NCBI GenBank assembly: GCA_020632095.1
Contig: JACKGF010000001.1
Location: 605,366-669,365 of the forward strand
Length of the DNA stretch: 64,000 bases
Reading direction: 5' to 3'
DNA from: Candidatus Nomurabacteria bacterium
GTDB taxonomy: Bacteria > Patescibacteriota > Minisyncoccia > Phycocordibacterales > UBA918
Part shown: piece by piece, positions 1 to 55,325 of the stretch
How positions within the stretch are numbered: position 1 is the first letter of the stretch
Layout of the letters: each line of letters opens with the position of its first letter
Made by a program: the position numbers and the translations under genes
The notes under the pieces: generated by a model
Seen by the model: the letters and a program-made list of their open reading frames with translations, nothing else
What the model was told of the DNA's origin: nothing
Databases searched by the model: none

Positions 1-305
1 CCTGCCACGCACTGTCTCGATGTGGTTTTACCACACCGGTTAGAGACTACCAAAATGAAGGGAAGTATTTCACTGGCGACTCCACGGTACCCGAAAGCCC
101 GCTTCAAAGTCTTCTTCCTATGCTACGCATCAAATCAATAGCCCCAATACGAAGCTACAGTAAAGCTCCTGGGGTCTTTTCGTCTAACTGCAGGTACCCG
201 GCATCTTTACCGGGATTGTATTTTCACCGAGCAGGTCCTCGAGACAGTTTCCCACTCATTACGCCATTCGTGCACGTCGGAACTTACCCGACAAGGAAAT
301 ACGCT

Positions 306-525
306 CTATATTTCCTTCTCCTACAACTTATTTGTAGACATTTCACAATAGGACTCTATCTTAACCCGTTATTCCGAAGAACACTTGGGTCTGCAACATT
401 TGGTCTCTTGTTGGTTGCATTTGGATTATGTTTACATTTCTGCAAACAAGGTAACTATGGCTAGGCTGTTTAACCTATAACCGTTCCAATCCGTCGAGCG
501 CACTATTTATTGGATAATGTGCTCG
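306..525 (-). other. 220-nt insertion in 23S exactly after the U equivalent to E. coli U1931. Candidate small ORF-less group I intron or intervening sequence.
   Basis: rRNA-sense flanks read TAATCGTTCTAAGGT | insert | AGCGTATTTCCTTGTCGGG, against E. coli ...CGGUCCUAAGGU AGCGAAAUUCCUUGUCGGG. The upstream exon ends in U and the insert ends in G (...GGAAATATAG), as a group I intron would. L1931 is a known rRNA intron site. Confidence 0.5.
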
Positions 526-731
526 ACCTTAGAACGATTATAGTTATCGCTGACATTTACCGGGGCTTATACAGTCCAGCATAACAATCCGAAGATCATT
601 ACACCCCCCGTATTTAACCTTCCGGCATAGGTCAGGCGTCACCCCCTATACTTCCACTTTCGTGTTTGCAGGGAGCTGTGTTTTTGTTAAACAGTTGGCA
701 GGAAATCTTTCGCTGCGGCCCAATACACCAC

Positions 732-1029
732 TTTAGTCTCAACCAGGTTTGATTTTTAACTAAAGTACAAATCGTTGCCTCAAACTAAAACCTTGATTCA
801 AATTTCAGTGTGACAACATCAATAGTTCCGCCGGATTCAATATGCTTTCCAGTCAAATCTCCCAAGGGAGAGATATCTGCAGTAAAGCGAAACTCACAAC
901 TATCGCCATTGGCATCTACGCCACTAACGATGAATGTTCCGTTCGGATTGTCGAGACTTCCTTGCAATAAAGTTATCTCGACTGACCCTATTATTTTCAA
1001 TTTCATTCCACTTTCTCCTTTGTTGAGAA
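732..1029 (-). other. Expansion/insertion of about 300 nt in the 23S domain IV region (E. coli ~1700-1760, helix 63 area), closed by a long-range stem.
   Basis: Flanks 713-731 (ctgcggcccaatacaccac) and 1030-1048 (gtggtgtattgggcagacc) are inverted complements. Conserved 23S sequence resumes on both sides. E. coli has about 80 nt here against about 350. Confidence 0.55.
785..1006 (-). CDS. 73-aa ORF inside the 23S insertion, preceded by a canonical Shine-Dalgarno sequence. Function unknown; coding status uncertain.
   Basis: Minus-strand sequence upstream of the ATG reads aaaGGAGaaagtggaATG. The ORF lies fully within the insertion and on the same strand as the rRNA. No homing-endonuclease motif recognised. 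Confidence 0.3.
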   Translation of the reverse strand: MKLKIIGSVEITLLQGSLDNPNGTFIVSGVDANGDSCEFRFTADISPLGDLTGKHIESGGTIDVVTLKFESRF

Positions 1030-1573
1030 CAAAGTGGTGTATTGGGCAGACCTTATCCCTAAGTTACGGTCGCTTTTTTGCCGAGTTCCTTGAGGACCTC
1101 TCACTCGTTCGCCTTAGTCTTCTCGACTCTACCACCTGTGTCGGTTTGCGGTACGGAACCATTATGCTTAACCCAAACGAAGTTTTTCTCGGAAGCGTGC
1201 TCCCCACATCGGATCGGCCGTAGCCTCACCTTCAGACCCTACTCGGACTTGTGCCTCCCGGATTTACCAAAAAGACATCCTCATAGTTCCAACTCCAATC
1301 CAATAAGGAGCTGCGGGTACAACGCTCCGTCCCTCCATAGGAACATAACAGTGTGCAGGAATATTAACCTACTATCCATCGGGTCCCCCATTCGGGATTC
1401 CCTTAGGACCGACTAACCCTTCGCTGATCAACATCGCGAAGGAAACCTTGGTATTTCGGCGGGCAGGGTTCTCACCTGCCTTGCGGTTACTTGTGCCGGC
1501 ATTCTCACTCCTCCTCGCTCCACCGCGGCTCTCGCCTTGGATTCATCGCAGAGAAGGACGCTCTCCTACCACT

Positions 1574-1737
1574 CGTAGGCTTCATTGAGGATTCAAGCAT
1601 TGCTTGAATCAAGAAAATATTGATGAGGTAGATGGAATCGAACCAACGACCTTTACCTTTACAGGGTAACGCTCTACCGTCTGAGCTATACCTCGTCTAA
1701 TATTTTCTCAAAGAACTTTTCCTCAATGAAGCCTACG
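1574..1737 (-). other. Helix-45-type intervening sequence in 23S. An 18-bp stem encloses about 130 nt and replaces the short E. coli hairpin at ~1170-1190.
   Basis: Arms 1574-1591 (cgtaggcttcattgagga) and 1720-1737 (tcctcaatgaagcctacg) are perfect inverted repeats. Flanks align to E. coli CTGCGG / GGTAGGGGAGCG. Helix 45 is a classic site for RNase III-excised intervening sequences. Confidence 0.6.
1623..1695 (-). ncRNA. tRNA-like cloverleaf (anticodon GUA, class I-like with a 5-nt variable loop) inside the helix-45 intervening sequence. No encoded CCA.
   Basis: Sense CGAGGTA-TA-GCTC-AGACGGTA-GAGC-G-TTACC-CTGTAAA-GGTAA-AGGTC-GTTGG-TTCGATT-CCATC-TACCTCA-T. Canonical D-arm (A14, G18 G19). U33 and purine 37 present. 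Perfect T-loop TTCGATT. Acceptor 6/7 bp and T-stem 4/5 bp. Confidence 0.4.
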
Positions 1738-1821
1738 AATCCGCAGTTTCGGTAATATACTTGAGCCCCGATCATTTTCGGCGCAAGGACTCTCGACCAG
1801 TGAGCTATTACGCTATCTTTA

Positions 1822-1856
<35 letters not shown>

Positions 1857-2417
1857 TGAGGAATCCTCACCTCCTCATTTTGCACTGAGTATATATTTTG
1901 GGACCTTAACTGGCGATCTGGGCTGTTTCCCTTTCGACCAATGGAGCTTCGCCCCCATAGTCTAACTGCCGCGTTCTTGACCTGCTGGTATTCGGAGTTT
2001 GATAAGAAAGACGAGATTTCTCCCTGTTCTTTCTTTCCAGTGCTCTACCCCCAGAGGGAACACGCGACGCCAACCCAAAAGCTGTTTCGGAGAGAACCAG
2101 CTATTACGGAATTCGATAAGCTTTTCACTCCTTACCACAAGTCATCCGATGATTTTGTACGGTCAACCGGTTCGGGCCTCCACGACCTATTACAGTCGCT
2201 TCACCCTGCTCATGGCAAGCTCATCCCGCTTCGGGTCGTACCCCTACCCTATATTCGCGCTATTCACGCTCGCTTTCACTACGCCTCCGTGGGTTGCCAC
2301 TTAGACAAAGGATAAAGGTACACTCGCCGGCTCATTCTTCAATAGGCACGCCGTCGCCCCGCAGGGCTTCGACTCCTTGTAGATGTATGGTTTCAGATCT
2401 ATTTCACTCCCCTCTCC

Positions 2418-2463
<46 letters not shown>

Positions 2464-3013
2464 TTCAAGAATATTTAGCCTTACCAGTTAGTACTGGCAG
2501 ATTCACCCGAGCTATTCATGTCTCGGGCTACTCAGGAGTAGAACCAAAAGAGTCAGATACATTTCGAATACAGGGCTATTACCTACTGGGGCCACGCTTC
2601 CCAACGTGTTTTCCTATATATCTGTTTTGTAACTCTCCGCAACTAAATGCAGATTCTATCCTACAACCCCATACATATAAATACGTATGGTTTGGGCTTC
2701 TCCCGTTTCGCTCGCCGCTACTTAGGGAATCGCAAGAACCTTCTTCCTGATTATAATGGCACAACCGAAGTTGTATCTAATCAGAAAGAAAATTCCGTTT
2801 ATTGCTTTCTATTCCTACAGGTACTGAGATGTTTCACTTCCCTGCGTACGCTCCCTCATACAAGGGTCACTGCCGATGACAGTGGGGTTTCCCCATTCGG
2901 ACATATCCGGGTCAAAGGTTATTTGGCACCTCACCGAATCTTATCGCAGCCATATCACGTCCTTCATCGCTTCTTGAAGCCTAGGCATCCACCATACACC
3001 CTTTGTTCCTGTA

Positions 3014-3057
3014 AGGAACGTTGAACACCATCGCTACAGCGATGGTGTTCAACGTTC
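3014..3057 (-). other. Perfect 20-bp hairpin immediately 5' of mature 23S (leader / processing element).
   Basis: ggaacgttgaacaccatcgc-tac-agcgatggtgttcaacgttcc. Confidence 0.5.
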
Positions 3058-3792
3058 CTTGCTTTGTTCGCTCGCTCGATCATGGAAGAGTAAACTCTTC
3101 CGCGATTCTCGCTCGCTCCAAAGTAAGGAACAACACCATCGACTGTAATAAGGTTATTACGTTCCAAACAAAAACGCTGTGCACCGCTGCACAATTTTTG
3201 AGTGTCGTCCGGAGACTATCGCGTTACAAACATAGTCGGCTGACGCCTTCTTGTTTGTGTAACGCTCCGCATAAGTAAATCATAGTCGAGCAAAGCTCTC
3301 CTTGATTTTCTAATATATACTCCGGACTCATTCGTACTGCACTAGACGCTTTTGAAAATCTAGGGCAGTACTGTGTTTTGTTTTGATGTGTGTCGGGGAC
3401 GAAAAGACCTGTCCGAAGACAAACTCTAACCCGACACACTACCTACTCTGTACATCACTCACTTGCGTGCGTGATGTACAGAATTTGCCTACCGGGCGTC
3501 GATTCCACGGTAGGACTTTGCGAAGTGGGTCTTATCAACCCCACCTCAGTCCGAAGACTGAAGTGCTTTACTTCTGAATATGCGATTGTATGGTCAAGCC
3601 ATACAACCCCCATTCGTTCGGTCATACGAAAGTAAACTTTCGTGCGACGCTCACTCATGGGAATTGTCAAATATCGCGTACCTCCTTGAGTCTGAATAAA
3701 AAAGCCGCAATCTCGCGGCAAGTCACATCGCTAATGCGAATCTCTTGCTACGAAGCTTTCTTTTTTCTCAAACTCATAAATACGTGATGGCC

Positions 3793-12849: not shown

Positions 12850-13527
12850 TCAATCTTCCACTTCTGTATAAGAAAGCCATTCTTCCATTTCGTCGTCGTA
12901 ATCTTTCTTATCTAGAAAATACTCTGGGAAGTTTTCAGTATTTAGAATTTTGGATTCTGGTCGCACAATACTATGGTCTAAATAACTAGAGTGGCTGTAA
13001 TTTCTAAGGTATTCTAATACTTCTGCCTTATCTTTTATCCCCTTCTCTCGCCAATCACTTTGAATCAATTTCACTGGATTCAAGTGAATATAGGAAAATA
13101 AATATTTAAGATACCCATCATCGTCAACGTGCTCCGACTTATACCTTCCTTCAAACAATGATCCAGTACGAAAGTTCTTCTTGTTAAAATACATCGAGTA
13201 ACCAGTTGATAATTTCTTCAAAAAGGCAGTCACTCCCCCATCAACTAGTGGTGTGAGCAGTATATGGAAATGATTTGGCATTAAGCAATACGCGCCGATC
13301 GCGACTTGCTGTTGACCTCTGTTAAAATCAAAAACTTTATCTTTATCAATATCTCGAAACTCAAACGAGGTAGTTCCATTCGAAATATATAATAACGCAC
13401 TAAATCTAGCGTAATCATCACTTGTGAGGAAAATTGCTTGTCGGGAGTTTCCTCTATTATATATATGATAGTACTCTCCTTCAGCAAACGGAATTTTTCT
13501 TCCTGACATCACTGGATTATACCACAC
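12850..13527 (-). CDS. Y1 HUH tyrosine transposase (IS200/IS605 TnpA-like / REP-associated tyrosine transposase).
   Basis: HUH motif CLMPNHFHILL. Tyrosine-containing YIHLNPVK motif. N-terminal YHIYNRGN. Flanked by inverted REP-like units. Confidence 0.75.
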   Translation of the reverse strand: MWYNPVMSGRKIPFAEGEYYHIYNRGNSRQAIFLTSDDYARFSALLYISNGTTSFEFRDIDKDKVFDFNRGQQQVAIGAYCLMPNHFHILLTPLVDGGVTAFLKKLSTGYSMYFNKKNFRTGSLFEGRYKSEHVDDDGYLKYLFSYIHLNPVKLIQSDWREKGIKDKAEVLEYLRNYSHSSYLDHSIVRPESKILNTENFPEYFLDKKDYDDEMEEWLSYTEVED

Positions 13528-36785: not shown

Positions 36786-37364
36786 TTATAAATGACTAAC
36801 TGTAACTGCCTGTGTATAGAGTTTTTCAATTTGTCTATATATATCATCAGAATATTGTTTAGACACATCATCTGGATCAACACTCTGTAAGTTAGCAGGG
36901 ATATTATTTATATCAACATAACCTAACTTAGCTAAGATATGCACTTGCAGTGCCATTTCTAAAAAATTTCTTTCTGTATGAACTTTGATTAATTCTTCTA
37001 AACTAGCCAAAGTGTAGTTAAATAATTCTTGAGCTTGCTCTTCTCCTTTTAGAAAGCGTCTCAGTAGTCGAAACAAACTTACCACGCTACCGCGGGATTC
37101 TTTGTCTCTGGCTTCATGATAGTAGTTTTTCTGCGCTTCGATACTACCAATTTTCCAACTATTCTTACCCTTAACCAAAGACACCCGAACTAGAGAGAAT
37201 TCCTGTAGCGCGTAACGCTGACGCGAACGCTCTTCGCGCACACTGCGGGCGTCTGCATAAAGCATGCCAGCTTCGCGGGTGAAAAGTAGGTACGAACGGT
37301 CAGCAGTGTTGCGATTGAAGACACCGCACACCAACGCCTTGGTTGTGTACGTCAGGTAAGCCAT
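36786..37364 (-). CDS. recO: DNA repair protein RecO-like (short form).
   Basis: N-terminal OB-fold pattern ADARSVREERSRQRYALQEFSLVRVSLVKGK. Confidence 0.5.
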   Translation of the reverse strand: MAYLTYTTKALVCGVFNRNTADRSYLLFTREAGMLYADARSVREERSRQRYALQEFSLVRVSLVKGKNSWKIGSIEAQKNYYHEARDKESRGSVVSLFRLLRRFLKGEEQAQELFNYTLASLEELIKVHTERNFLEMALQVHILAKLGYVDINNIPANLQSVDPDDVSKQYSDDIYRQIEKLYTQAVTVSHL

Positions 37365-40300
37365 TATTGCTTAGCGATAGTGAAGCTAAATTGGAAGTCA
37401 CCGGCCGTTAATTCTTCCCCTTCGGTAACCTCGGCAAAAGTGACAATTGGAGCACCGACGGTTTTGGTCAACATTTCTTTATAATCATTGACCGCTTTTT
37501 CTCCGGCTTCATTAGTACTAATAGTGAGAGTTATTTTATCCTGCGGTTCCAGACCGGCAGTTTTGCGCTGCCCCTGCACCGCCCGCATCAGTTCACGTAC
37601 GGCGCCTTCGGTTATTAATTCTGACGTAAGAACAGTATCAATCGCTATTAACTCAGATACTTTATAGGACTTTGCGTTCAACTCATCGAGCACAACTTCC
37701 TGTAAATCTGGAGACAATTCAGGACCAGACACACTAGCAATTGGTTGTCGGACTTTAATATTAGCTTTAGTACGAGCTTCGAGTGCAGTCGTCACTAATT
37801 CCCTGACCACCTGCATTTCTTCGGTTATTACCCCGTCAACTTCCTTATTCTCTGGCCACGCTGCCAAATGTACGCTTTCAGCATCACCCTCTTCCTTCAC
37901 CGCTCGCCACAAATAATCAGCGTAAAAAGGCATCACCGGTGCCATCACTAGCGCGAGTGTCTTCAGTGTATAGCGAAGAGTCGACAAAGCTAAAGCTTTA
38001 TCAGCCACATCATCTCCTTTCACTCGGTCACGCGAACGACGCAAATACCACACTGACAAATCATCTATGAAGTCGGTAATTGGTCGAGTTGCTTTGTCGA
38101 GTTCGTAGTTTTTATAACCAGCAGTTGTTTCATTGATCAGCTCGTTAAGGCGCGCGACAATCCATCTATCAAGTACATGACTGGAATTGTCGCGCGCCTT
38201 TGTCCCATCCGCAAACATCTCATACATCGCCAACACATTGTGTAGCCGACCGAGGTTTTTACGCTGCTGTTCAATTACTTCCTTTTCAGTAAAGTTAAAA
38301 TCCTCACCTTTTACTGCTGTCGACGACAATAAGTAAAAGCGCATAGCATCAGCTCCAGCTGTATGTGCCACGTCCATTGGGTCAGGATAATTCTGCAATG
38401 ACTTACTCATTTTACGACCATCCTCTGCAAGAACAGTTCCGTTTACTACTACGTTCTCAAAAGGTGACTTACCGAACAACGCAACACCCAATACAATCAG
38501 CGAATAAAACCAACCGCGGGTTTGGTCGAGTCCTTCGGCAATGAATTTGGCTGGAAAATTTTGCTTAGTAAACTCGGCTTCATTTTCACCCATGTAATGA
38601 TGTTGTCCATAAGGCATCGAGCCACTCTCAAACCAGCAATCAAACACATCTGGCACTCGCTCCAACTTCACCCCTCCTTCAAACAGTTTAACCTCATCAA
38701 TGTACGGCCGATGAAAATCAAGCTCGAAGTTATCGTTGCGGGGATACGGCGTATACCCGAGTGGACGCACTTCTGCGTTACCTAGGTAAGCATTCCGACC
38801 GTCAAAGTATTTTTCGGCTTGCTCAGCATCAAAGCCCCAAGCTGCACACTCAAGGGCAAACATCGGCCCAGCATGACTCACAATCAATATTTTCTTCCCT
38901 TGGTAAGTCCTTTCTAAATCCAGCAAGAATTCTCCCATCCGCTTTTGCACATCACGCCGATTTTCCGAACCAGGTAGATTCTTAGTAAACCGCTCGGCCC
39001 AATCAGCAAACTGATCGTTGTATTCCGGCCACTTCTTCCCTTCCAAATCGTCTGCCAAATCTAATTCTCTAATCCGGTCATCCTCAATTATTTCAGCTTG
39101 TGGTAACTTTGTCGCCACTACTTCGGCTGTTTGTTTGGTACGCTTAAAGCCAGAATGGATGATGATGTCGATGTCTTTAGTGATAGCTTCAGTCGCCAAC
39201 AAGGCTTGCTCTTGCCCCAACTCAGTCAAATTATCGTCATTGTCCTTATTGCAACTAATCACATCAGCGATGTTACTTTCACTTTGTCCGTGACGCATCA
39301 TTAAGTAGGTATTGCCACCTTTGGGTACAAATTTTTGCAAATCAGCGAGCGAACCAATCACTTTGTATTCTTTGGTTTCCGGATTACGCCAAATCGGTAA
39401 CGGTGCGCCCCAGTAGCGCTGACGACTTATCGCCCAATCGCGTGCGCCCTCCAACCACTTACCAAAGCGATTGGTTCCGACGTGATCCGGCACCCAGTTC
39501 ACTTTATTGTTGGCCGCCACCAAATCCGCTTTAATTTTGGTCACCTCCACAAACCAAGACGTGGTGGCGTAGTTCAAAAGCGGAGTATCACACCGCCAAC
39601 AGTGCGGGTAGCTGTGCGTGATATTTTCTTTCTTGAGAATTTTTCCAGCCGTTTGGAGGGCTTTAAGGATTTCAATATCAGCATCTTTATGATTGACTCC
39701 AGATTCCTCATCGTCTTTTGGCTTTACCAACTGCCCAGCAAAGTCAGTCACAAAATCCATAAAATGCCCCGCTTCGTCAACGTGATGAATTATCGGCACA
39801 TTGTGTGCTTGCGCCAACTTCATGTCGTCATCACCGTAAGCAGGAGCAATATGGACCGCCCCCGTTCCTTCTTCGCCCAGCTCAACATAGTCAGCATGGT
39901 AAATAGTCCAAGCGTTTTCTTTGCCTTCGAAGTCTTGGTTCTGCAGGTATGCAAACGGCGGTTGGTACTTTTTGCCAACTAATTCGGAGCCTTTGAAAAT
40001 TATTCTTTCATCTTCTTTCGGTAATCCAGCTATTTGAACCATTCTGTCTCTTGCTATGACAAAACTTTCTCCAGCATTAGCATTAATTTGAGATATGACA
40101 TTTCCATTTTCAATAGTCCCAGATTCATAACCAGTAGCTACATCTTTTACAGTCACCTTTACATAATCAATTTCATTATGAACCGCAGCAGCCATGTTGC
40201 CAGGTAGTGTCCATGGTGTTGTTGTCCATACAAGCAAAAAGGTGTTGTTATCAGTTACAAAATCACTAATCTGTTGACCAGCATCAAGCTTCAACTTCAC

Positions 40301-40966
40301 CGTCACCGCAATATCTTTGATATCCCTGTACCCTTGATTAACCTCAAAGTTTGACAAAGTCGTCCCACAACGTGGACAAAGGTGCATACTTTTGAAACCT
40401 TCATACACCAAACCTTTTTCGTGTAGCGACTTAAAAACCCACCAGACACTTTCGGTGTAGGTGCTATCCATGGTTTTGTAATCGTTCTCCATGTCGGCAA
40501 AGCGGCCCATCCGCGGGATGATACGCTTCCAGTCGTCGGCGTATTCCATCACGGCGTCACGTGCTTGTTCATTAAAATTCTTGATACCGTACTCTTCGAT
40601 ATCGCGCTTAGTCGCCAAACCAAGCTTTTTCTCAATCAGGTTCTCGAGGGGCAACCCATGACAATCCCACCCCCACTTCCGCCGCACACGGTAGCCATTC
40701 ATCGTCCAAAAACGCGGAATCGCGTCCTTGATAGTTCCTGCTAAAATATGCCCGTAGTGTGGCAAGCCAGTCGCAAACGGTGGCCCGTCATAAAATACAA
40801 AATCTCCCTTCGGCTCCACTCCCGCTGGAGCCGCCAAACTTTTATTAAAAATATCCGCCTCTTCCCAAAAAGCCTGCACCGCTTCCTCGCGCAAAGCGAC
40901 GTCGGACTTCGGTGTCTCAGCTACTACTTCGACGCTATCATTTTCTCGATGGTGTTGTTTTTTCAT
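37364..40966 (-). CDS. ileS: Isoleucyl-tRNA synthetase with an inserted histidine-phosphatase (PGAM-like) domain.
   Basis: HYGH class I motif. WGWDCHGLPLE. WAISRQRYWGAPLPIW. KMSKS. A ~170-aa domain with LMMRHGQSESN ... IVSHAGP lies between the Rossmann core and the VFDCWFESGSMPY segment. Confidence 0.85.
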   Translation of the reverse strand: MKKQHHRENDSVEVVAETPKSDVALREEAVQAFWEEADIFNKSLAAPAGVEPKGDFVFYDGPPFATGLPHYGHILAGTIKDAIPRFWTMNGYRVRRKWGWDCHGLPLENLIEKKLGLATKRDIEEYGIKNFNEQARDAVMEYADDWKRIIPRMGRFADMENDYKTMDSTYTESVWWVFKSLHEKGLVYEGFKSMHLCPRCGTTLSNFEVNQGYRDIKDIAVTVKLKLDAGQQISDFVTDNNTFLLVWTTTPWTLPGNMAAAVHNEIDYVKVTVKDVATGYESGTIENGNVISQINANAGESFVIARDRMVQIAGLPKEDERIIFKGSELVGKKYQPPFAYLQNQDFEGKENAWTIYHADYVELGEEGTGAVHIAPAYGDDDMKLAQAHNVPIIHHVDEAGHFMDFVTDFAGQLVKPKDDEESGVNHKDADIEILKALQTAGKILKKENITHSYPHCWRCDTPLLNYATTSWFVEVTKIKADLVAANNKVNWVPDHVGTNRFGKWLEGARDWAISRQRYWGAPLPIWRNPETKEYKVIGSLADLQKFVPKGGNTYLMMRHGQSESNIADVISCNKDNDDNLTELGQEQALLATEAITKDIDIIIHSGFKRTKQTAEVVATKLPQAEIIEDDRIRELDLADDLEGKKWPEYNDQFADWAERFTKNLPGSENRRDVQKRMGEFLLDLERTYQGKKILIVSHAGPMFALECAAWGFDAEQAEKYFDGRNAYLGNAEVRPLGYTPYPRNDNFELDFHRPYIDEVKLFEGGVKLERVPDVFDCWFESGSMPYGQHHYMGENEAEFTKQNFPAKFIAEGLDQTRGWFYSLIVLGVALFGKSPFENVVVNGTVLAEDGRKMSKSLQNYPDPMDVAHTAGADAMRFYLLSSTAVKGEDFNFTEKEVIEQQRKNLGRLHNVLAMYEMFADGTKARDNSSHVLDRWIVARLNELINETTAGYKNYELDKATRPITDFIDDLSVWYLRRSRDRVKGDDVADKALALSTLRYTLKTLALVMAPVMPFYADYLWRAVKEEGDAESVHLAAWPENKEVDGVITEEMQVVRELVTTALEARTKANIKVRQPIASVSGPELSPDLQEVVLDELNAKSYKVSELIAIDTVLTSELITEGAVRELMRAVQGQRKTAGLEPQDKITLTISTNEAGEKAVNDYKEMLTKTVGAPIVTFAEVTEGEELTAGDFQFSFTIAKQ
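38807..39310 (-). other. Histidine-phosphatase superfamily (phosphoglycerate-mutase-like) domain embedded within IleS (aa ~553-720).
   Basis: RHG catalytic motif (RHGQSESN) near aa 558. Downstream SH(A) motif (VSHAGPMFA) near aa 697. Confidence 0.6.
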
Positions 40967-54338: not shown

Positions 54339-55325
54339 ATGCAGACTCCAGCCGACCCAACCACTAAGTTAAACCTTTCCACCGAAGCTGAAGTCTTCGC
54401 TCTCATCATTACTCCGAACCACCCCTTCAAACGCATCAACGACATCATTGATTTCAATACGCTAGCTGAACCAATGCGCGCTACCTATTCCACTATGGGA
54501 GCAGCTGGCATTGACGTTGAGAAAGGCATCAAAGCTTTGTTAATCCAGTTCTGGGAAGACTATAGTGACCGTAACATGGAGAAAGCTCTCCGCGAGAACC
54601 TGGCCGTCCGCTGGTTCTGTGGTTTTGGTCTAACTGACCCCACTCCAGACTTTTCATACTTCTCTAAACTCAGAAAGCGGATTGGCACCAAACGCATCGC
54701 TACCATGTTTCAAGATATTAACGCTACCCTAGAAACCCACGGTCTCTTTGGTAACGTCTTCACCTTCATTGATGCTTCTACCATCATCACTAAAGCCGCC
54801 CTGTGGGAAGAGCGAGATAAAGCGTTAGCTGATGGAGAAAAGAAGCTGAACAACAGCAATGTGCAGAAGTACGCAGCTGACAGTGATGCTAAGTGGGGAG
54901 CAAAGTCTAAGAATAAGATTTGGTTTGGTCACAAGCGACATCTGTCTGTCGACATGCGTCATGGGTTAATCGTCAAGTCAGCGGTCACCAATGCCAGTGT
55001 GCCTGATTTCAAGACTGTGAGAAGTATCCTACCGAAACAAGGAGCGGTCTTTATGGATAAGCTCTATGATACCAACTTCACTAATCAGGTGGTGACCGCT
55101 CAGGGTTGTCACGTCGCTACCATTCAGAAAGATAATCGAAAAGACCGAGACAGGGACCTTAACTCCTGGCGGTCAAAAACTCGCATGCCGTTTGAGAATG
55201 TATTTTCCAAGTTAAACAAACGTGCTCGCTACCGCGGACACGCTAAAGTGACGATGCAAGGGTTTATGCAGGCGATGGTTCATAATTTGAAGAAAGCTTT
55301 GGTTCATATACCACAAACTACTTGA
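54339..55325 (+). CDS. IS5/IS1182-family DDE transposase.
   Basis: InsH-N-like segment (LLIQFWEDYSDRNMEKALRENLAVRWFCGF). FIDASTI. FGHKRHLSVD. C-terminal RMPFENVFSKLNKRARYRGHAK (IS5 YREK-like region). Confidence 0.75.
   Translation: MQTPADPTTKLNLSTEAEVFALIITPNHPFKRINDIIDFNTLAEPMRATYSTMGAAGIDVEKGIKALLIQFWEDYSDRNMEKALRENLAVRWFCGFGLTDPTPDFSYFSKLRKRIGTKRIATMFQDINATLETHGLFGNVFTFIDASTIITKAALWEERDKALADGEKKLNNSNVQKYAADSDAKWGAKSKNKIWFGHKRHLSVDMRHGLIVKSAVTNASVPDFKTVRSILPKQGAVFMDKLYDTNFTNQVVTAQGCHVATIQKDNRKDRDRDLNSWRSKTRMPFENVFSKLNKRARYRGHAKVTMQGFMQAMVHNLKKALVHIPQTT

Follow-up and report, generated by a model that had tools for sequence, protein, structure and literature searches.

The window analyzed here is a 64,000-nt stretch of contig JACKGF010000001.1 (assembly GCA_020632095.1), and our subject is an insert in helix 45 of its 23S rRNA gene that encloses a tRNA-like module. 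The gene lies on the minus strand at the start of the window and covers positions 1 to 2265 of the Rfam bacterial large-subunit (LSU) rRNA model (the 5' part, ∼77%), with its 3' end beyond the window edge. It is unlinked, in that the upstream 61 kb of the window contains no 16S, 5S, or other tRNA gene, and the module in the insert is the sole tRNA match of the 64 kb by both Rfam and ARAGORN. The gene belongs to a bacterium of the candidate phyla radiation (CPR)/Patescibacteria that resembles Kaiserbacteria and Paceibacteria. Gene content of the window is typical for CPR bacteria, and its isoleucyl-tRNA synthetase (IleRS) has hundreds of homologues at 65 to 72% identity, the named ones being from Candidatus Kaiserbacteria, Paceibacteria, or Parcubacteria.

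The 164-nt insert takes the place of the helix-45 loop (Table 1). In the Rfam LSU alignment this hairpin occupies model positions ∼1206 to 1226 and the insert falls between positions 1218 and 1219, on the rRNA strand at the tip of the helix, with flanks ACCGAAACUGCGGAUU and AGUGGUAGGAGAGCG that are helix 45 itself. The insert is closed by an outer stem of 18 perfect Watson-Crick pairs, which extends to 21 continuous pairs plus the helix-45 base in the minimum free energy (MFE) fold; a sequence-only reading of this DNA had proposed an 18-bp perfect stem in place of the helix-45 hairpin, and the alignment, the pairing, and the fold all agree with it. Such a long double-stranded closing stem, an RNase III-type substrate, is characteristic of intervening sequences (IVSs). 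From 5' to 3' the fold passes through the outer stem, 8 unpaired bases (GUUCU among them), an inner stem of 13 bp around a cloverleaf, and a small hairpin. Positions 1750 to 1565 fold at -77.4 kcal/mol, compared with -42.8 ± 4.1 kcal/mol for 200 shuffles (z = -8.5), and therefore the helix-45 insert is more than a chance arrangement.

The cloverleaf is a 73-nt tRNA-like module. The Rfam tRNA model RF00005 matches it at positions 1695 to 1623 on the minus strand (65.6 bits, gathering score 29, E = 5e-12 for the whole window), ARAGORN calls it tRNA-Tyr (GTA) at 1695 to 1622, and it scores 74.6 bits with R1, a covariance model that we built from 13 compact modules of the family described below and that also detects modules with large insertions. 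A near-canonical 73-nt tRNA on the rRNA strand, as first read from the letters, is thus confirmed by a covariance-model match far above the gathering score, and the structural details of that reading were all correct: a D arm (GCTC/GAGC, with GG in the D loop), a T loop (TTCGATT), an anticodon loop (CUGUAAA) with U33, GUA, and a purine at position 37 (A37), 6 of 7 acceptor pairs (C1·A72 being the mismatch), 4 of 5 T-stem pairs (U50·U64), and a discriminator, U73, with no encoded CCA. The variable loop has 5 nt, and the nucleotides of the tertiary contacts are present (U8, A14, G18G19, G53, U54, U55, C56, A58, and C61). The module has, in its acceptor/T-arm stack and elbow nucleotides, what is required of an RNase P/RNase Z handle.

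It does not have what is expected of tRNA-Tyr. Bacterial tRNA-Tyr identity combines A73 with a long variable arm (class II); all six bacterial tRNA-Tyr genes that we met in other loci are class II, 81 to 85 nt long, with A73, and CPR Leu and Ser tRNAs in the compared loci are likewise class II (82 to 90 nt), whereas the window module is of class I, with its 73 nt, its 5-nt variable loop, and its U73. We also considered the isotype from which the module might derive; the nearest tRNAs were those for Thr or Gly in a small, biased panel, which is too weak a basis to assert an origin.

Table 1. Positions of the helix-45 insert, its parts, its host gene, and other features of the window
Feature	Position	Strand	Basis or remark
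Bacterial 23S rRNA gene, host of the insert	1..3015	-	Rfam RF02541 (LSU_rRNA_bacteria), 1660.6 bits
Helix-45 insert	1574..1737	-	Rfam LSU alignment
Native helix-45 base, 5' strand ACUGCGGAUU	1738..1747	-	Rfam LSU alignment and MFE fold
Outer stem, 5' arm CGTAGGCTTCATTGAGGA; core TTCATTGAGGA conserved across the family	1720..1737	-	18 bp, perfect, with 1574-1591
GTTCTTT motif, boxA-like; mostly unpaired in the MFE fold	1710..1716	-	Motif enrichment in the family
Extended boxA-like match GTTCTTTGAGA	1716-1706	-	10 of 11 positions of GYTCTTTAANA
boxA-like motif as RNA, GUUCUUUGAGA			
Inner stem, 5' arm TTGAGAAAATATT; leader pairs with trailer around the module	1699..1711	-	13 contiguous pairs with 1609-1621
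tRNA-like module, class I cloverleaf	1623..1695	-	Rfam tRNA, ARAGORN, own model R1
Anticodon GTA in a 7-nt loop	1660..1662	-	ARAGORN, Rfam
Inner stem, 3' arm AATATTTTCTTGA	1609..1621	-	MFE fold
3' hairpin UUCAAGC-AAU-GCUUGAA, extendable to 1590-1610; adjoins outer-stem 3' arm	1592..1608	-	MFE fold
Outer stem, 3' arm TCCTCAATGAAGCCTACG	1574..1591	-	Pairs with 1720-1737
Native helix-45 base, 3' strand AGUGGU, followed by conserved GGUAGGAGAGCG	1568..1573	-	Rfam LSU alignment and MFE fold
Second intervening sequence, helix-63 region	719-1046	-	
73-aa open reading frame in the second intervening sequence	1006-785	-	
Extra 68-nt hairpin, 23S domain I	∼2735-2802	-	Rfam model position ∼228
20-bp perfect hairpin at the 23S 5' end	3015-3058	-	
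Transposase, IS200-like Y1	12850-13527	-	
Isoleucyl-tRNA synthetase	37364-40966	-	
Transposase, DDE (DUF772/DDE_Tnp_1)	54339-55325	+	

Homologous 23S genes of relatives carry comparable inserts, which we found in four genomes and 58 metagenome contigs (the related loci compared are numbered with the prefix L). A genome scan for a T loop combined with the helix-45 3' flank, a pattern with no bearing on whether the inserts are exclusive to CPR, matched at least 119 loci; among the matches listed, 4 lie in 23S genes, all of them from Paceibacterota/Patescibacteria, and 115 are chance matches outside 23S genes. The four Paceibacterota genomes share the scaffold, and each has a tRNA-model match in helix 45: Trp-CCA at 67.3 bits in L117 (metagenome-assembled genome JBBDOU01), 53.6 bits in L008, 53.8 bits in L034 (with a 6-nt anticodon loop), and 42 bits in L031 (class II-like, with an odd loop). 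A metagenome scan for the scaffold 3' arm plus the 23S flank, free of tRNA features, returned the 58 contigs with the scaffold, 50 of them non-redundant. The same architecture recurs across numerous independent assemblies, two of which are the complete chromosomes CP174360.1 and OZ253947.1.

The scaffold consists of a conserved outer stem and a 3' hairpin, with interchangeable cargo between them. The outer-stem core TTCAT(T/A)(G/C)AGGA / TCCT(C/G)(A/T)ATGAA is common to nearly all members, and the adjoining stem positions vary in a compensating manner: across 29 distinct versions of the stem, pairing holds in 99.6% of cells, compared with 27 to 44% in slid controls, and 9 of 18 pairs have changed in both partners. 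The core (TTCATTGAGGA/TCCTCAATGAA in the window) is also kept in sequence, beyond pairing alone. A hairpin of 7 to 12 bp precedes the outer-stem 3' arm in nearly all family members, whatever their cargo.

Three types of cargo occupy the slot. tRNA-like modules, one or two per insert, are present in 12 of the 50 non-redundant metagenome loci, a further 5 being too truncated to judge. Small open reading frames (ORFs) of 45 to 91 aa, each with a Shine-Dalgarno sequence upstream, occupy at least 15 loci (L122, L124, L125, L132 to L134, L141, L143, L147, L149, L153, L159, L163, L165, and L175) and have no Pfam match, the 23S_rRNA_IVP family included; one group of these ORFs is soluble with a motif like F.F.a.s.eeA...W, and another encodes single-transmembrane peptides. 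The third type is a structured RNA that starts with CCTCA(C/A)AG (L135, L148, L129, and L158) and matches no Rfam family. The helix-45 insert of L121 is a minimal 61-nt hairpin without cargo.

Fifteen of the helix-45 modules qualify as tRNA by the Rfam gathering score. When 13 compact modules are aligned, cloverleaf pairs form in 97% of cells (32 to 47% in slid controls), both partners have changed in 17 of 21 pairs, and covariation scores 0.885, compared with 0.24 for shuffles (0 of 500 reach it); the tertiary-contact nucleotides named above are invariant or nearly so. R1 detected further modules in L123, where 83 nt replace the anticodon loop, in L128, L160a, and L008b, and in L138, with ∼28 nt in the D loop. 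Several modules resemble particular isotypes: Trp-CCA in L117 and L120 (G73-CCA), Arg-ACG in L174 (A73-CCA and a typical Arg D loop), Gly-GCC in L138 (G1-C72/C2-G71/G3-C70/U73), and Ala-UGC in L177b (G3·U70). In the window (Tyr), L160b (Leu-AAG, with G33), and L136 (Ser-ACT), the anticodon and the structural class do not match. Of 19 IVS modules, 11 have anticodon loops of 6, 8, or 9 nt or insertions of 14 to 83 nt in the anticodon arm, and in these same defective modules 75 of 77 acceptor pairs and 54 of 55 T-stem pairs are intact. Between the modules of L117 and L168, whose 23S genes are ∼90% identical, 4 of the 7 acceptor pairs have diverged, all of them still paired. The family modules are thus tRNA-shaped, yet they do not appear to be decoders.

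Two other interpretations of module anatomy were rejected. The anticodon-arm insertions are too short to be read as introns, since 14 to 83 nt is under group I size as judged from intron size, and the Rfam group I intron matches in these loci include none inside the helix-45 insert. An inner stem comparable to that of the window is clear in just 12 of 19 family modules, and low-complexity flanks raise the shuffled controls, and therefore we do not treat it as a universal feature. Group I introns (RF00028) do occur in the 3' part of the 23S genes of L117, L121, L130, L136, L161, L168, L171, and L174; such introns in CPR 23S genes have already been reported.

The heptamer GTTCTTT accompanies the modules. 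Family insert interiors, 13.5 kb in all, contain it 20 times against an expectation of 0.57 (at most 4 in 200 shuffles), a ∼35-fold enrichment, and it is found mostly in inserts with tRNA-like modules or their remnants, usually 9 to 19 nt upstream of the first base of the module. It matches the core of the gammaproteobacterial boxA consensus GYTCTTTAANA (PMC5725501), and the bases that follow the 7-mer are not conserved in the family. The 23S-5S spacers of L121, L117, and L168 also hold tRNA-like units together with GTTCTTT, two of them with defective anticodon arms. In L121 (6560 to 6760, minus strand) the motif, a module with a 6-nt anticodon loop, and a 3' hairpin are enclosed by a stem; in L117 (7150 to 7440, plus strand) the unit is likewise stem-enclosed with a 3' hairpin, the motif comes after the module, and ∼55 nt are inserted in the anticodon arm; and in L168 (3100 to 3330, minus strand) a Pro-GGG module is followed by the motif, and there is a partial second copy in addition. 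GTTCTTT is absent from all six 23S-5S spacers without a tRNA-like module. This tight coupling of motif and module suggests that the two form a maintained unit. We rejected GTTCTTT as a general leader motif of these bacteria, since most leaders carry YTTTGACAA; among 12 23S leaders the heptamer is present in two (L160 and L128), and the others share YTTTGACAA. The 23S or 16S leaders of L123, L174, L031, L117, L130, L160, and L171 have a hairpin, AACCGCTT...AGCGGTT, then a T-run, with YTTTGACAA 20 to 30 nt farther on.

The sequence-only reading had offered three functions for the module, a processing handle, a fossil tRNA, and a functional Tyr-like tRNA; the first two stay live, and the third is disfavored. 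We lean, at somewhat less than even confidence, toward the first, in which the window element would be a tRNA-derived, non-decoding handle for processing and clearance within a spacer-like IVS excised by RNase III. The insert would be transcribed within pre-23S rRNA, and RNase III would excise it by cutting the outer stem, after which base-pairing would join the two pieces of the mature 23S rRNA, one of ∼1.28 kb and the other a 3' fragment, as in classical helix-45 IVSs. On the released spacer of ∼130 nt, RNase P at the 5' side and RNase Z or exonucleases at the 3' side would recognize the acceptor/T-arm stack and elbow, such that the module would act as a handle for processing and clearance, comparable in bacteria to spacer tRNAs and mitochondrial tRNA punctuation, and not as an amino-acid adaptor. 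By analogy with boxA in rrn spacers, GUUCUUU may serve to reload the polymerase with NusB/NusE. Among the RNases of ribosome biogenesis, CPR bacteria retain RNase III, RNase J, and PNPase (rnc, rnj, and pnp) as a conserved set (PMC12641178).

Several considerations weigh against a handle. We infer excision, 23S fragmentation, and RNase P/Z cleavage of the insert from sequence, and RNase III by itself would be enough for excision. Most family members carry ORFs or other RNA, which makes the IVS independent of a tRNA-like module. The closest 23S relative of the window, L135 (94.3% identity over 1274 nt), has a different, non-tRNA cargo, and the next relatives, at 84 to 90% identity, have ORF cargo; such sporadic occurrence among close relatives is characteristic of IVSs. 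In a sub-clade formed by L117, L120, L168, L150, and L162, which keeps the 3' hairpin and the outer-stem 3' arm (and, in four aligned members, the inner stem), L117 and L120 have an intact Trp-like module, L168 has a decayed one, L150 has a remnant of ∼20 nt, and in L162 the module has been replaced, as would suit a passenger that can be dispensed with. Ascertainment accounts for part of the apparent preservation of acceptor and T stems, because ARAGORN, the covariance models, and our own script all need these stems, and the defective modules may mostly be young one-hit pseudogenes. The boxA match of the window is not significant alone (14 matches versus 17 expected), and the 23S and 16S leaders mostly carry a conserved YTTTGACAA, unlike GTTCTTT; we therefore use "boxA-like" for GTTCTTT purely as a label, and the genuine boxA of the leaders in this group may be YTTTGACAA.

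The turnover of cargo among close relatives and the successive states of one module within a single sub-clade are also what would be expected if the module were a fossil or passenger. On this account, which we consider possible though less probable than a handle, the tip of the IVS would be a cargo slot whose content is exchanged by recombination through the conserved arms and which now and then takes up a piece of rrn spacer or a tRNA gene. The window module would be a tRNA copy acquired in this way, closest in its body to Thr or Gly tRNAs, that drifts neutrally and lacks a function of its own. The resemblance of modules to several isotypes (Trp, Arg-ACG, Gly-GCC, and Ala-UGC) indicates repeated capture, more than half of the modules have disabling lesions, and the window module itself holds 2 stem mismatches among only 8 unpaired cells in the 13-module alignment. 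Neutral drift is harder to reconcile with the near-complete acceptor and T stems of the defective modules, with stems that diverge yet still pair between 23S genes ∼90% identical, with tertiary-contact nucleotides that are invariant or nearly so, and with the occurrence of defective tRNA-like units in 23S-5S spacers as well; the tight coupling to GTTCTTT again suggests a maintained unit.

That the window module is a working tRNA, freed from pre-23S rRNA, provided with CCA, charged, and used, either as an unusual class I tRNA-Tyr or under another identity and exploiting the strong rRNA promoter in the way of spacer tRNAs, is unlikely. tRNA genes that are co-transcribed with rRNA are commonplace, CPR tRNA genes in the compared loci normally lack an encoded CCA, and the canonical 7-nt anticodon loop with U33 and A37, the tertiary contacts, and the high covariance-model score would suit a functional tRNA; the Arg-ACG module of L174 and the Trp module of L117, with A73-CCA and G73-CCA, respectively, look bona fide. 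For tRNA-Tyr in particular, the sequence features make the case improbable, because the window module is of class I, combines U73 with a variable loop of 5 nt, has the mismatch C1·A72, and is missing from the nearest 23S relative. The second mismatch, U50·U64, and the inability of half of the family to decode also count against a function in translation. Since the nearest relatives lack the module, it could not be the sole tRNA-Tyr of the lineage unless acquired very recently.

Less probable still is that the insert is an expansion segment retained in the mature ribosome, with the tRNA-like fold as a docking module on the 50S surface at the helix-45 tip. This tip tolerates insertions, conservation of the core TTCATTGAGGA/TCCTCAATGAA in sequence as well as in pairing would fit a part of the mature ribosome, and L121 has its cargo-free version of 61 nt. 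Against retention, the slot takes cargo of up to several hundred nucleotides, some of it translatable ORFs equipped with ribosome-binding sites, close relatives do not share their cargo, and the long perfect stem is a classical substrate of the RNase III that CPR bacteria keep. Finally, a chance cloverleaf or an assembly chimera is effectively refuted: metagenome assemblies can be chimeric at rRNA genes, but the E value of the tRNA match, the z score of the fold, and the recurrence in many independent assemblies, two complete chromosomes among them, leave little room for an artifact.

The same 23S gene carries other insertions and flanking structures (Table 1). A second intervening sequence, in the helix-63 region, is absent from relatives such as L031; it has a perfect closing stem of 16 bp (CCCAATACACCACTTT/AAAGTGGTGTATTGGG) and contains a Shine-Dalgarno sequence, AAGGAG, with a 73-aa ORF (MKLKIIGSVEITLLQG...). 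In domain I, an extra 68-nt hairpin with the stem TTCTTTCTGATTA.../...TAATCAGGAAGAA represents an expansion or else a third insert. Adjoining the 5' end of the gene is a perfect hairpin of 20 bp, GGAACGTTGAACACCATCGC-TGTA-GCGATGGTGTTCAACGTTCC, and another long stem lies upstream, to ∼3130; these are probably leader processing structures. Elsewhere in the window, IleRS has a histidine-phosphatase domain (His_Phos_1) inserted at aa 555 to 720, an architecture common to all 120 of the homologues listed, of which the named ones are CPR, and two transposase genes, one IS200-like and one of the DDE type, are present.

Parts of this system have precedents. IVSs in helix 45 of 23S rRNA are known from Salmonella, Leptospira, Campylobacter, and Coxiella (PMC2801512, PMC4990558), and the family shares with them the site in the helix-45 loop, a long stem suited to RNase III, sporadic distribution, turnover of cargo, ORFs in some members, and an expected fragmentation of 23S rRNA. 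It differs in its tRNA-shaped module with a boxA-like motif and in a scaffold (TTCATTGAGGA/TCCTCAATGAA plus 3' hairpin) that extends across Paceibacterota, and its excision is predicted. In CPR bacteria, Tsurumaki et al. 2024 (PMC11270868) described many short, non-intron 23S insertions at known IVS sites that were left uncharacterized; that survey screened insertions against Rfam, classed them only as group I/II introns or not, and assigned ORFs by Pfam. The 23IS4 insertions of the survey are very probably the same class as ours, being in CPR, at a known IVS site, and without an intron, but the word tRNA is absent from its main text, and tRNA-like cargo, scaffold, and GTTCTTT are not described there. 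Full-text literature searches, with most subscription papers outside their scope so that absence is not proof, turned up no account of a bacterial 23S IVS that carries a tRNA or anything tRNA-like. Helix-45 IVSs and CPR rRNA insertions are known already; the tRNA-shaped cargo, the common scaffold, and the boxA-like motif appear to be new.

Spacer tRNAs of rrn operons (tRNA-Ile/Ala between 16S and 23S, and distal tRNAs) with boxA offer a second comparison, since there too a tRNA or tRNA-like element and a boxA-like motif lie between pieces of rRNA, flanked by processing stems; the module of L177b even resembles tRNA-Ala(UGC), with G3·U70. The window and its family differ from these spacers in lying inside the 23S gene, in that many copies are non-decoding, and in having leaders with another motif. 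Mitochondrial tRNA punctuation, the t-elements of plant mitochondria, and mascRNA are tRNA-like processing signals for RNase P and RNase Z, and the modules are like them in being tRNA-shaped and non-decoding, in keeping the acceptor/T-arm stack and elbow with the anticodon arm left free, and in that they would direct RNase P/Z cuts. Unlike them, they are in bacterial rRNA, their cleavage is putative, and an RNase III stem is present too, so that a handle is not obviously required. A tRNA gene also separates two parts of the mitochondrial LSU rRNA of Tetrahymena pyriformis, according to the citation of Heinonen et al. 1987 (PMID 3102478) in PMC2996981; as presented there, that case shares with the window a tRNA gene between the two LSU pieces and differs in being organellar, with rearranged pieces, a functional tRNA-Leu, and another break point.

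For Paceibacteria as a whole, it is conceivable, though in our view doubtful, that the non-decoding modules and the boxA-like motif in the helix-45 insert and the 23S-5S spacer together make up an RNase P/RNase Z punctuation of the rRNA precursor, a bacterial counterpart of mitochondrial tRNA punctuation in a lineage with pared-down RNases. In some members the slot might even contain the working tRNA gene of the genome, as with the Trp-like module of L117 or the Arg-like module of L174. In one large class of CPR bacteria, a sizeable share of the short, non-intron, ORF-less inserts rests on a common scaffold and carries tRNA-shaped modules with a boxA-like motif, which gives them an anatomy and a testable function. 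On the practical side, tRNA finders will call spurious Tyr, Leu, and Ser tRNAs inside CPR 23S genes. Should some modules prove to be working tRNA genes, the 23S gene would harbor essential tRNAs, which would affect tRNA censuses and completeness estimates for CPR bacteria, and annotation pipelines may mask or mis-call them. Cleavage by RNase P/Z under the direction of the modules, if it takes place, would extend the tRNA punctuation of rRNA maturation to free bacteria, and such a handle would show how RNase-poor genomes solve rRNA processing.

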